Positions 10,771 through 25,297 of a DNA stretch of 64,000 bases are shown here, in pieces (within the stretch, counting starts at the first letter, position 1; each line of letters starts with the position of its first letter). Origin of the DNA: Candidatus Bathyarchaeota archaeon. GTDB taxonomy: Archaea; Thermoproteota; Bathyarchaeia; Bathyarchaeales; Bathycorpusculaceae. Both the position numbers and the translations under genes were made by a program. The stretch covers positions 1 to 64,000 of the forward strand of contig CAWDYC010000005.1 of assembly GCA_963806535.1 (NCBI GenBank), in the 5' to 3' direction. The notes under the pieces are model-generated. The model was given only the letters and a program-made list of their open reading frames with translations. It did not search any database and was not told the DNA's origin.

Positions 10771-10879
10771 TGGTGCTCCGGCCGGGATTTGGACCCGGGT
10801 CCGCGACTCGAGAGGCCGCTATACATAGTCCCTTAATAAGAAATCTTAGTAAGGTTTGACCGGACTATACTACCGGAGC
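10771..10879 (-). tRNA. tRNA-Glu(CTC) with 31-nt non-canonical D-loop intron (10825-10855)
   Basis: GCTCCGG acceptor, anticodon arm GCGGC-CTCTCGA-GTCGC, encoded CCA; removing 31 nt after GGTCAA restores the cloverleaf. Confidence 0.9.
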
Positions 10880-10956: not shown

Positions 10957-11328
10957 TTACTCTTCGTCTTCCACGTCTGCATTTAAAAACCGCTTTATGG
11001 CCGCCATAATTTCCTCTAATCCATTCTGAGTTAGCGGTGGATCATACGGAATTCGAAGTACATCCCAGCCTTGAGCCTCTAAAAGCTCATCGATTTCACT
11101 GTCACGGTTTATTTGCTTGTCCTTTCGATGTACAGGGTTACCGTCAAGATAAACAATTTTTCGTTTTTCAGCCCAGCAAAAGTCTGGAACTGTAGATTTT
11201 AGGATAATTGGTTTTTGTGTTATCATGCCGCTGGTTAATCCAACCATGCTTAAAGTTTGAAAAACAGCCATTTCAGCATTGCTAACTCTAGGATGCATGC
11301 TTGCTTTGTAGCTCAATTTAGATTCCAC
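10957..11328 (-). CDS. DUF559/Vsr-like PD-(D/E)XK endonuclease domain protein
   Basis: VPDF..KIVYLDG.PVH..RD..L..QGWDVLRI. Confidence 0.75.
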   Translation of the reverse strand: MESKLSYKASMHPRVSNAEMAVFQTLSMVGLTSGMITQKPIILKSTVPDFCWAEKRKIVYLDGNPVHRKDKQINRDSEIDELLEAQGWDVLRIPYDPPLTQNGLEEIMAAIKRFLNADVEDEE

Positions 11329-11414
11329 TGCCTTTATGGCATGTTCCGACCCTTTTTAAAGAGTGGGTGAAACTACCTGCAAACAGTAACCAAAAGTAGG
11401 CTTGGAGGATCGCT

Positions 11415-11525
11415 CATGTTAACGCAAGGCCGAACCAAAAAGAGAATTATCAGGTTGGCGATTCGTGCCCGTTTAACGGCTGACCCGCCAAGCATGGGTG
11501 TACCTCTTGGATGGCTATTTCTCGC
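11415..11525 (-). ncRNA. Candidate structured ncRNA, unit A
   Basis: Own TTTATA box; GCGAG/CTTGC closing stem followed by GTTAACA; ends shared with unit B. Confidence 0.4.
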
Positions 11526-11587
11526 AAAATAACAAGACCTCGCCGAGTATAAATGGAATTGTGGTGTTGTTGTCAACAACAAGCGCT

Positions 11588-11742
11588 CCTGTTAACGCAA
11601 GTATCGGGTAAAGTGCAAATGATAGAGACCAGAAATTTGCTAGGCATTAGGCGTTATTTTTTCTTCTTGTTCTTCAACAACTATGGCAAAATGCTAAGTC
11701 ATTGGATGTCACATTCTCTTGGTTATCGGTCTATTCTCTCGC
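11588..11742 (-). ncRNA. Candidate structured ncRNA, unit B
   Basis: Same promoter block and same terminal motifs as unit A, different interior. Confidence 0.4.
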
Positions 11743-11972
11743 AAAAGCAGACAAGACCCTATGATAAGTATAAATGGAATATGGGGAATGTATAATGTTA
11801 ACAGATCTAGCTGCGTTTGCGTTTGGAAGTTGCCAATCTTGCACCGGGTTACTCTTCAGCAACTTGGCAAGATAAGCCTTGATAATTGAAAATATAGATT
11901 CAAAAACAGTAACTTAACCAAGTCGAAAGAATCTACAAAAAGAAGAAAAGTCTTTATTATTAGACTTTGAAT

Positions 11973-14391
11973 TTAGCTTTCAGTTTTTTTCTGAGATTCA
12001 AAGGTTGCAAATTGTTTAAGTTTATCAGCATTTTCCCTTAGTTGCTTATCAACCAAGTAGTTCACTGTGTTTTCTTCAAAGGTTCCATCAGAACGTTTCA
12101 TCCCAGCTTTTTTTCCTGTTAGAAACTCGATGCCTTCGTCGATTGTTTTGACTGCGTAAATATTGAATTTGCCAGCTTTTACTGCTTCTATAACTTCTTC
12201 TTTAAGCATTAGGTTTTGCACGTTGCTTTCCGGTATCATTACCCCTTGCTGTCCAGTCAATCCCTTCAGCTTGCATACTTCAAAGAAGCCCTCAATTTTT
12301 TCGTTGACTCCGCCTATGGCTTGAACTTCTCCTTTTTGGTTAACTGAACCAGTTACAGCTATATTCTGCTTAATTGGAAGTCCAGAAAGCGCTGATAAAA
12401 TGCAATATAGTTCTGTGCTTGAAGCGCTGTCTCCTTCGACGCCTTCGTAGTTTTGCTCGAAAACTAGTCTTGCAGAAAGGCTTAGTGGTTTGTCTTTGGC
12501 AAATTTGTCGTTTATGTAGCCGCTGAGAATTAAGACGCCTTTTGTATGTATTGGTCCACCCATTTTTGCTTCTCTTTCAATATCGATTACGCCTTCTCTG
12601 CCTAGGCCAATGCTCGCTGTGACGCGTGAAGGATTTCCGAAGGCAAAATCGCCAAGACCCATAACCGATAAGCCGTTTACTTGACCAACGCTTTGATCAA
12701 CGGTGTCAATTAGGAAGAAGCCGCGTTTTATCATTTCTTGGATTTTTTCTTGTATGAGTTTTGAGCGATAAACTTTTTCTTCTATCGCTTTCTTGACATG
12801 ATCTCCTGTAATGAACGCAGAGTTTTCTTGTGTTGAATAAAAGTTGGCTTCGCGAATTATGTCGGCGATGTGCGCAAATTGTATGGATAGTTTGTATTGG
12901 TCATCTGCAACTCTTGAGCTGTATTCAACCAGTTTTGCTACTCCTGTGCCATCAAGGTGCTTGAGGTTTTCTCTTTCGCAAAGTGCGCATACCCATGCGG
13001 CATATTGACTTACTTTTTCATCGGTTCTATCCATCACTGAGTCGAATTCTGCTTTAATTTTGAAGAGTTCTTTGAAATCGTGATCTAATTGGAACATCAT
13101 TTGGTAAAGATAGGGATCTCCAATGAGTATGACTTTGGCTGACAAAGGAATAGGCTGAGGTTTAAGGGTTTTAACGCTGAGAAATCCATAGCGTTCTTCA
13201 GGTTCTTCAATAACTATGTTTTCTTCTCTGATGTCCCGTTTCAAGCCGTCATATGAGAATGGGTTTCTTAGTAATTCTTCAACAGGAATAATTAGGTATC
13301 CGCCGTTAGCTTTGTGAATGGCACCCGCTCTAATCATCGAAAAGTCAGTCGTTAGAGCGCCGAACTGTGCTTCTTTTTCTGTTCTTCCCAGAAGGTTAGG
13401 GTAAGTAGGGTTAGTGTCCATAACTACCGGAGCACCTTTGGTTTCAGAATTGTCGATGACAACGTTTACCTCATATTTCTTGTATGGGTCCTCTTTCATC
13501 CACGGCATGGAAAACGGAAGAAAATCTTGAGGTTCGCCACGTCCTCCTCTCACAAATTGGTTGAGATTATCCAAAATGTCATTCTCAATGGCTCTCAAGT
13601 AAGCTGTTACTTCAGGGTTGTTTTTGTACTTTTCATTGAGAATTTCCATTTGGTTGCCGATTGCATAAAGAGCGACTTCTTTGTTTAGCTTTTTCAAGGC
13701 ATCATGAATTTTTCTTTCCATATCTAAAAGCTGGCGCATTGTATTTCTGAATTCTGTCTCCAAGCCTTCCCTTTTTTCATTAATTTTATCCTTCATTTTT
13801 TGAGGCAAGGCCAACATTTCTTCTTCACTGAGTGGTTTGCCATCTAAAACAGGAATAAGAAGCAATCCAATAGGTGTCGCTTGAATAACAAAGCCCTCTC
13901 GTTGAGCCTTGACGCTTAATTCTTCAATTAACTGTTTTCGCTGATTTTCTAATCCACGAATTGTAGCATCTCTTCTCGCAGCATAATCCTCGCTTTCAAA
14001 AGCTTTCGGCAACGCATTCTTAATGTTTTCAATGAAGTTTTTCATGTCTTCTTTGAATTCTTTTCCTTTTCCGGCGGGCAACTGAATCGCTTTCGGCTCA
14101 TACTGGTTAGCAAAATTATTGACGTAACACCAATCAGGCAGGAACAGACTGAATTTTAGCTTGTGCCTCAACAAAATTTTTCACCGCGGTTTTTCTTCCC
14201 GTTCCAGGGTAACCTGCAACATACATGTTGAAACCGTGGTTTTTTATGCCGAGACCGAATTTTAAGGCTCGAACGGCTCTTTCTTGCCCTATAATTTCGC
14301 CTAAAGGAACAAGGTCATGGGTTGATTCACACTGCATAAAACTCGGATCACATACTCTTCTAAGCTTCTCTACTGGTAAAGCGTTAACCAT
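11973..14391 (-). CDS. Lon-family (S16, LonC-like) protease; frameshift near 14140
   Basis: IGQERA, GYPGTGRKT, GAIHKANGGYL, VEGDSAS Ser and EKIEGF Lys catalytic dyad. Confidence 0.9.

Positions 14392-22109: not shown

Positions 22110-25297
<3,188 letters not shown>

Follow-up and report, generated by a model that had tools for sequence, protein, structure and literature searches.

Intergenic, trans-encoded small RNAs (sRNAs) that possess their own B recognition element (BRE)/TATA promoter and end in oligo-U are known from archaea, with sRNA162 and sRNA154 of Methanosarcina mazei as examples. Sibling families of bacterial sRNAs, among them LhrC1-5, CcsR1-4 and RsaE, carry C/U-rich loops, while type III toxin-antitoxin loci (ToxIN-like) encode an RNA of tandem 36-nucleotide (nt) repeats which is processed by an adjacent endoribonuclease toxin. 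Next to nothing has been described of the RNA biology of the Bathyarchaeia, an abundant and uncultured group; in the portions of the literature exposed by a full-text search we found nothing on non-coding RNAs (ncRNAs) of this group. Here, we discuss an intergenic locus in a 64,000-nt stretch (hereafter, the window) of contig CAWDYC010000005.1 from a Candidatus Bathyarchaeota archaeon. An initial annotation of this stretch proposed two tandem hairpin RNA units, A and B. The first withstood our analysis and the second, a non-equivalent partial copy, did not. We hold with very high confidence that unit A is a true structured RNA and represents a new family, and with good confidence that unit B is no member of that family and partially copies unit A over a dead open reading frame (ORF). 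That these are best explained together, unit A as the gene of a stable, trans-acting sRNA and unit B as a partial copy over a dead ORF, appears probable to us, with more reserve.

Unit A and its RNA family

Read along the minus strand, the locus comprises the LonB protease gene, unit B (11780..11584), a palindrome (11580..11566), unit A (11559..~11392), the DUF559 gene and a transfer RNA (tRNA) gene (10879..10774). The strings quoted in the initial annotation are all present on this strand where it placed them, as is the palindrome, perfect over 15 nt. At up to three mismatches, CTTGCGTTAACANGAGCG occurs in exactly two places in the window, 11411-11428 and 11584-11601, where 0.14 matches would be expected and none of 100 shuffles held two. 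ATTCCATTTATACT is likewise found in two exact copies, 11546-11559 and 11767-11780, with no other exact copy in the 2.95-megabase genome. Considered alone it is a weak motif, as 12 of 100 shuffles also gave two matches when two mismatches were tolerated. The local alignment of full-length unit B to unit A scored 84 (200 shuffles: 25.1 +/- 4.5, maximum 40). The repeated motifs are thus real rather than products of chance.

Conservation of unit A was assessed by DNA searches of 60 relatives, namely 36 genomes of the same genus and 24 from other families of the same order. The unit A half of the query was matched in 28 of the 36, with E-values from 1e-16 to 1e-70, and in none of the 24. Its orthologs follow a common order, in which the promoter CACAATTCCATTTATAC precedes a variable stretch of ~22 nt, an invariant GCGAGAAAUAGCCAUCCAAGAGGUACACCCA, the body and CCGCCAAGCCUACUUUU. 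Indels in the body do not come in multiples of three and three orthologs have lost the ATG, a pattern which rules out a peptide gene and bears out the earlier claim of a non-coding RNA. Identity with RNase P or signal recognition particle (SRP) RNA was likewise rejected, both lying elsewhere in the genome (RF00373, weakly, at C9:153724 and RF01857 at C4:359408).

Covariation provides the most detailed view of this RNA. For 20 orthologs aligned with MAFFT, RNAalifold predicts that, after a 5' domain, three helices nest around an apical hairpin: P1 (GCUUGGCGGGUC / GAUCCGCCAAGC), P2 (GUUAA / UUAAC) and P3 (GCGAAUC / GAUUCGC). Compensatory changes occur in 8 of the 31 predicted pairs, and 96.3% of cells pair under the P1-P3 fold, compared with 20-46% for slid partners; no shuffle of 500 performed as well. 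In a model-fitted alignment of the wider family, changes on both sides are seen in 24 of the 31 pairs, and the proportion of pairing cells is 94.9%, or 95.6% without five reverse-strand rows which were later removed. P2 and P3 covary richly here, with P2 changing from UA to CG/GC and from AU to UA/GC. P1 is a helix of 12 base pairs (bp) with a nearly invariant core, UUGGCGG.UC / GA.CCGCCAA; the three apparent compensations within this core are register shifts, and we therefore regard it as essentially invariant. The wider family further presents 150 G.U cells against 14 A.C cells, an excess which indicates selection as an RNA on the minus strand and not as a DNA palindrome. Together with the oriented promoter, this upholds the strand originally assigned, for the unit A RNA.

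The helices first proposed for this unit fared less well. GCGAG/CTTGC, TTGGCG/CGCCAA and a CCG/CGG core together pair in 75.7% of cells across the same orthologs, against 74.7% in shuffles, and were matched by 87 of 500 shuffles; an alignment shift in five rows lowers the GCGAG helix somewhat. CCGTT/AACGG as originally written would leave a loop of 1 nt, and its feasible core is CCG/CGG.

Two covariance models, R1 for unit A and R2 for the broader family, were used to explore distribution. The respective scores of unit A are 129.8 and 104.8 bits, and it carries the family scaffold of P1 (YUUGGCGRRUC / GRYYCGCCAAR), P2, P3, an oriented promoter and a U-tail. Its own genome holds 3-5 paralogs (Table 1), and R1 also matches loci of other genera, one locus containing two intact copies in tandem; intact tandem pairs of family RNAs are found in other genomes at L036, L082 and L122. 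The earlier notion of a family thus holds for unit A, its constant part being the internal three-helix scaffold and not, as had been suggested, the ends around a variable interior. Neither the locus (E<=10) nor 20 loci of other subfamilies (E<=1) matched any model of Rfam 15.

Scanning 185,579 species genomes for the exact P1-arm pattern returned 73 loci, 40 of which match R1. These include 39 of the 44 loci labelled Bathyarchaeota/Bathyarchaeia or archaeon and one of the 29 labelled bacterial. This last locus (L101), on a contig of 10.7 kilobases labelled Limnocylindrales, features a 135-bit type-I RNA next to the archaeal DUF559 gene; the contig is probably of Bathyarchaeia origin and misbinned. 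A viral origin of the family was rejected, the pattern having no match in viral contigs. Within the taxonomic family of the host, R2 matched 6 of 101 sampled genomes, representing 4 of 70 genera; among 136 genomes from 30 other families of the class it matched none, under strict filters which may miss weak relatives. Genomes carry 3-6 copies each. Subfamilies are distinguished by their 5' part, reading ..A then GCCAUCCAAGAGGUACACC in type I, to which the window's locus belongs, and ..GAA then GCCAUCAAACGUUGCAUC in type II, with other 5' parts in III and IV. The scaffold and oligo-U end are common to all of them. This apparently undescribed family is therefore one found in a few genera of uncultured Bathyarchaeia.

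The archaeal TATA promoter recognized earlier is confirmed for unit A by its retention in orthologs. Upstream of it, CTTGTTGTTG is also kept in unit A orthologs, and the second arm of the palindrome reads ACACAA(C/T)CACAA in relatives. Most other family members carry a corresponding TTGTTG..N..CAGTCACAA-like element, N3-5 before the TATA box. The fuller architecture, TTGTTG..N12-14..ACA(A/G)TCACA(A/T)-N3-5-TATA, is seen upstream of family members and of some other loci of the same genome (examples include C8:54228(-), C8:149416(-), C5:190116(-) and C11:100162(+)), and was not seen upstream of the tRNA, ribosomal RNA (rRNA), SRP and RNase P RNA genes inspected. A dedicated transcription factor may bind there.

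Evidence of transcription comes from contigs of four peat metatranscriptome runs, which cover 11378-11515; the share of the window in any run was at most 0.12, and such contigs give neither expression levels nor an exclusion of other RNA ends. They carry a CCTG insertion, corresponding to the apical hairpin arm that is missing from the window's copy. None of the 12 contig records on unit A extends past 11515, and six, spread across the four runs, end at 11514/11515. In one record (X19), the sequence runs directly into a read-through adapter at 11515 and into the other adapter at 11410, an orientation which agrees with first-strand complementary DNA of an RNA transcribed from the minus strand and having 11515 as its 5' end. 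Because the contigs end there, we place the 5' end at G11515 (GCCAUCC..), 10 nt inside GCGAG. Genus g139 lends independent support to this placement, as its leader differs (..CGAGGCA) and conservation begins exactly at GCCAUC. The spacing from the TATA box suggests that transcription starts near GCGAG, and G11515 could be either a processed 5' end or a stop of reverse transcription. Contigs over unit B and the 3' end of LonB were absent from the relatives' contigs of the four runs, from which nothing follows.

Table 1. Positions of the features discussed. Locations without a contig prefix refer to the window; C7, C8 and C9 denote contigs of the same genome.
Feature	Position	Strand	Description
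Unit A gene	~11525..11392	-	Conserved structured ncRNA; TATA promoter, upstream element, oligo-U end
Mature unit A RNA, ~124 nt	11392..11515	-	Placed by covariance-model scores, covariation and RNA contigs
Leader GCGAGAAAUA	11516..11525	-	Presumably transcribed; absent from RNA ends in metatranscriptomes
5' domain of unit A	11515-11494	-	
P1 of unit A	11493-11482 paired with 11411-11400	-	
P2 of unit A	11477-11473 paired with 11422-11418	-	
P3 of unit A	11465-11460 paired with 11436-11431	-	
Apical pyrimidine/U-rich part of unit A	11459-11437	-	
Oligo-U tail of unit A	11399-11392	-	
TATA-box promoter of unit A, ATTCCATTTATACT	11546..11559	-	Conserved in orthologs; exact second copy at 11767-11780
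Upstream promoter element of unit A	11566..11585	-	CTTGTTGTTG and ..CAACAAC arm; palindrome 11566-11580 in the window's genome
Unit B, patch 1	11716..11780	-	Copied TATA promoter, spacer GGTCTTGT, leader, start of 5' domain to CCAAGAG
Unit B, interior	11602..11715	-	Mostly the decayed 3' half of a small membrane-protein gene; at the 5' edge, weak similarity to unit A
Unit B, patch 2, CTTGCGTTAACAGGAGCG	11584..11601	-	17/18 copy of unit A 11411-11428
Small membrane-protein gene remnant	11731..11862	-	43-codon stump; stops in GAATAG
LonB protease gene	11973..14174	-	Pfam LonB_AAA-LID and Lon_C; upstream neighbour
DUF559 gene (Vsr-like endonuclease fold)	10957..11328	-	Pfam DUF559, E 4e-8; own TATA-like box
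Family member	C9:56696-56830	-	54.9 bits with R2; also matched by R1
Family member	C8:54063-54190	-	34.7 bits with R2
Family member	C7:91311-91443	+	24.7 bits with R2
Further member or relative	C7:91076-91187	-	
Further member or relative	C8:~149290-149400	-	Without canonical P1

Unit B and the small-protein gene beneath it

Unit B shares little of this profile. It was matched neither by R1 at E<=10 with filters off nor by R2 at E<=1, and its half of the query found nothing in the 60 relatives except one partial match in G026. Its minimum-free-energy fold is worse than that of shuffles (z +1.02; 167 of 200 shuffles equalled or bettered it), as is that of the opposite strand (z +1.68). The upstream promoter element is missing, no oligo-U end precedes the promoter of unit A, and a disrupted GACCGAUAACC stands in place of the conserved 5' start GCCAUCC. 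The second promoter motif is present in one of 44 type-I loci, that of the window, 16 short loci showing only ~230 nt upstream.

Comparison with relatives clarifies what unit B consists of. It aligns collinearly with their spacer between LonB and the RNA gene (74% over 91 nt in L003, E 4e-9; local score 107). In relatives (L003-L013), the spacer holds an ORF on the same strand for a small membrane protein with a core of ~57-62 codons, intact in 11 of the 12 relatives examined; its place in the window is 11602-11862. Intact orthologs read ..MIIMLLPALIFIFLMGWCMYWIGDQKRPDKIQRKP.KKDNVTIMPI..EETQEIINE, and conservation is ordered by codon position (p2 0.84 > p1 0.79 > p3 0.76), which fits a coding gene; Pfam assigned no family to it. 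An ORF on the opposite strand was rejected, its frames being inconsistent and interrupted by stops, and the same-strand ORF is the real one. In the window, only a stump of this gene is left, its start and transmembrane helix having been replaced by the unit-A-like promoter and leader of patch 1.

That patch, put at about 75 nt or, more broadly, about 65-100 nt, consists of collinear blocks identical to unit A. Since the spacer GGTCTTGT is specific to unit A of this lineage, the copying event is recent. At the site of patch 2, relatives read ..GAAGCTTGCACG; as they already possess both flanks, ~11 nt look to have been inserted between CTTGC and CGCTTG. What the initial annotation took for the variable interior of unit B is thus the remnant of a small-protein gene, and the ends it considered a family trait reflect a recent local copy confined to one of 44 type-I loci. 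A decayed coding gene, which the annotation itself had named as a finding that would count against it, underlies unit B and not unit A.

The simplest reading is that two patches of unit A were copied into the neighbouring small gene, through short-tract gene conversion or template switching at microhomologies, and that this copying would have destroyed the gene. The promoter of unit B may still fire, albeit without a scaffold or terminator to follow it. In G026, a second copy of the RNA-gene promoter, inclusive of its upstream element, lies ~400 nt upstream at the LonB-proximal end of the spacer (L003). As this duplication is different and independent, promoter copying seems to recur. We also considered the spacers of relatives as ancient, decayed copies of the RNA and rejected this, no model match exceeding ~8 bits. 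In 8 of 10 relatives, the spacer resembled the relative's own RNA no more than shuffles did; L003 (z 5.1, from its separate promoter copy) and L013 (z 3.2) were the exceptions.

Unit B could instead be a functional newborn sibling, an sRNA which has acquired the promoter and 5' seed of unit A along with a new body. Its TATA box and initially transcribed region are intact copies, intact tandem siblings exist elsewhere in the family, as described above, and the 5' domain might be a seed. We nonetheless judge this reading improbable, given the missing scaffold, upstream promoter element and oligo-U end, the disrupted 5' start and a fold worse than shuffles, in a unit seen in a single type-I locus whose body is a decayed ORF. 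Unit B as a partial copy also serves as a caution, in that short local gene conversion can mimic a constant scaffold with a variable payload while marking the death of a neighbouring small gene.

The DUF559 neighbour and other alternatives

The DUF559/Vsr-like gene recognized downstream in the initial annotation was corroborated by Pfam (Table 1), and its association with the RNA extends well beyond the window. Of 43 other type-I loci, 42 have an ortholog on the same strand at a distance of 70-110 nt downstream (three of these loci being duplicate fetches); the exception, L104, is a diverged second copy. Both g139 genomes show the same arrangement with a diverged RNA, and LonB lies upstream in the type-I loci of 18 relatives. 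All six RNA-positive genomes are among the 16 DUF559-positive genomes in the sample of 101. The link is thus one of real synteny. The annotation had speculated on a connection with the nuclease, and its positional component is well founded; a functional dependence is not, as DUF559 also occurs without the RNA.

Type-I RNA could be functionally tied to DUF559 as a cis-acting leader or attenuator, as a type-III-like antitoxin, or as the partner of a protein with a nuclease fold. Besides the conserved adjacency and co-occurrence, the succession of promoter, RNA, U-tract and small nuclease-like gene resembles type III toxin-antitoxin loci. We nevertheless consider such a tie unlikely. Firstly, every locus has a conserved TATA-like box, AAGTTATTAAGG, that belongs to DUF559 itself. 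Secondly, of 13 DUF559 loci from other genera, ten lack an upstream RNA (E<=1), two have one and one retains a relic; a locus from the same genus (G036) is also without the RNA. Thirdly, other paralogs reside beside unrelated genes (ParB_N-like, NTPase_1, Trm1 and KARI). No RNA contig bridges 11310-11378, which is no proof of separate transcripts, and the co-occurrence does not constitute independent evidence because the genomes are kin. Predicted pairing between type-I RNA and the 5' region of DUF559 in eight genomes gave energies no better than those of shuffles. A repeat array of the type III kind was rejected, units A and B not being equivalent repeats and relatives having a single RNA.

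The relic lies upstream of DUF559 at L134 (G362), where the 3' half of a type-I RNA persists, ..UUCGAUUCGCGUC..CCGCUAAGC..AAUUUU, without its 5' half (a weak match of 13.6 bits). Beyond DUF559, the tRNA at 10774-10879 (-) has the anticodon loop CUC (Glu), an Rfam tRNA score of 45 bits and an insertion of 36 nt in the D-loop region, probably a non-canonical intron; ARAGORN did not report it. The window also holds a 23S rRNA gene at 22193-25215 (+). A 16S gene was found solely on another contig (C4:221732-223226), so that the rRNA genes appear to be unlinked. The sole candidate for RNase P RNA, C9:153724-153912 (+), scored 22 bits against a family cut-off of 84, and may be a reduced or divergent form.

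Far less likely is that the family constitutes a palindromic DNA repeat, similar to MITE or REP elements, whose transcription is incidental. Several copies per genome, units bounded by 11-12-bp inverted repeats of conserved sequence, and a model which weakly scores the reverse strand too would all suit a repeat. The preponderance of G.U over A.C cells speaks against it, as do the oriented promoter and U-tract of each copy, the 3-6 copies per genome at orthologous, syntenic places across species, the absence of the pattern from viral contigs, and RNA contigs with a defined end.

The H/ACA-like identity put forward in the initial annotation, by which both units, as hairpins, would offer a pseudouridylation pocket, carry a 3' ACA box and direct the modification of rRNA or tRNA, is scarcely credible: despite a long hairpin shape, an ACA after CTTGCGTTA in both units and an A-N-A-like triplet which, on our reading, often falls a few nt 3' of P1 in family members, the supposed pocket is closed by the covarying P2, with small P1/P2 and P2/P3 loops, and the ACA belongs to the 3' strand of P2 (UUAAC+A), is unconserved (AACG, AGCA or GACG in other members) and lies at least 25 nt from the 3' end, the RNA continuing into the P1 strand. 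The 5' domain showed no rRNA complementarity above shuffles, in a scan which did not take in the internal-loop strands; no Rfam H/ACA model matched; and inspection, without a dedicated K-turn search, revealed no conserved tandem G.A K-turn. With respect to box C/D RNAs, neither unit contains RUGAUGA (C box), and a CUGA adjoins P2 in one subfamily only.

Proposed function and comparison with known systems

What unit A might do is considerably less certain than what it is. We envisage that it is transcribed from its TATA promoter with the family-typical upstream element, that the first ~10 nt would be removed to leave a 5' end at GCCAUCC (or that reverse transcription merely stops there), and that the RNA would fold into a long irregular hairpin ending in oligo-U. 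P1 could then serve as a protein handle, an RNA-binding protein, Sm-like or otherwise, occupying P1 and the U tracts, while the subfamily-specific 5' domain and apical loop may confer specificity in trans, probably by base pairing. Archaeal SmAPs make an Sm-like protein the natural candidate partner. Some features of the apical part are compatible with this proposal: it is 63% pyrimidine, as opposed to 46% in the stems, with UUUU in 54 of 68 members and a C-rich 4-mer in 52 of 68. Two siblings on C8 of the same genome have an identical 20-nt apical loop, UUCCCCCUCUCUCUUCCGAA, on different stems.

Several considerations weigh against unit A as the gene of a stable, trans-acting sRNA. Searches for targets gave none, and we accordingly regard a trans-acting, protein-bound mechanism as plausible while stopping short of calling it probable. 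The 5' domain has a single ten-mer match to 16S and 23S rRNA with flanks, against a shuffle mean of 2.8. Genome-wide, it has 8 distinct sites of at least 12 nt, the best of which (14 nt, C5:321929) falls 370 nt inside an ORF of 725 codons, and the best genome-wide complement of the apical loop is inside a 305-codon ORF. The 3' end of 16S reads ..CACCUCCU, and the best loop complements found lie within ORFs. In the window's own copy, the apical hairpin is missing its 3' arm, P1 contains a C.U mismatch and P3 falls one base short of its length in orthologs; this copy folds only slightly better than shuffles (z -1.08) and, with its deletion and mismatch, could be decaying. The metatranscriptome contigs derive from relatives and are not raw reads of the organism itself, the end at G11515 could be that reverse-transcription stop, and the wider-family alignment did contain the reverse-strand rows mentioned above. 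Finally, adjacency to DUF559 in two genera leaves room for a cis or partner role of type I.

A broader and more tentative suggestion, which we consider rather unlikely as it stands, is that the family represents a new modular class of archaeal ribonucleoprotein or regulatory RNA. The invariant P1 and the internal and 3' U-tracts would form the protein handle, Sm-like proteins being one possible ligand, and the 5' domains and apical loops exchangeable specificity modules, with a dedicated promoter (TTGTTG..CAGTCACAA-TATA, seen in most members) and 5' maturation. If true, the chaperone-dependent sibling sRNA families would have an archaeal counterpart, restricted to a few Bathyarchaeia genera with large genomes, and type I might additionally be coupled to a protein with a DUF559 nuclease fold. 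A family with paralogs, a common promoter and support from both covariation and expression offers a handle on RNA regulation, on genome annotation and for a new Rfam entry.

Set beside described systems, the family invites comparison on several fronts. It resembles archaeal H/ACA sRNAs in being a hairpin with internal loops, of a size similar to their single hairpins, and differs in having neither an open pocket nor a conserved ACA box. ToxIN-like loci share with type I alone the arrangement of RNA gene, terminator and small nuclease-like gene on one strand. In place of a repeat array, however, there is a single structured RNA, and DUF559, which is not known as a type III toxin family, is found in loci without the RNA as well and possesses a promoter of its own. 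The LhrC, CcsR and RsaE families are similar in their several, sometimes tandem, paralogs with individual promoters and terminators and in their unpaired C/U-rich loops, and the two C8 siblings recall them in combining an identical loop with different stems. They are dissimilar in that the host here is archaeal, the best loop complements are inside ORFs, and the apical part of the window's unit A is U-rich rather than C-rich. Like sRNA162 and sRNA154 of M. mazei, finally, unit A is a lineage-restricted, stand-alone gene of 100-150 nt with a TATA promoter and a U-tract end. It bears no sequence or Rfam relation to them and, unlike them, belongs to a multi-paralog family united by one scaffold and one promoter architecture, with a 5' end that is apparently processed.

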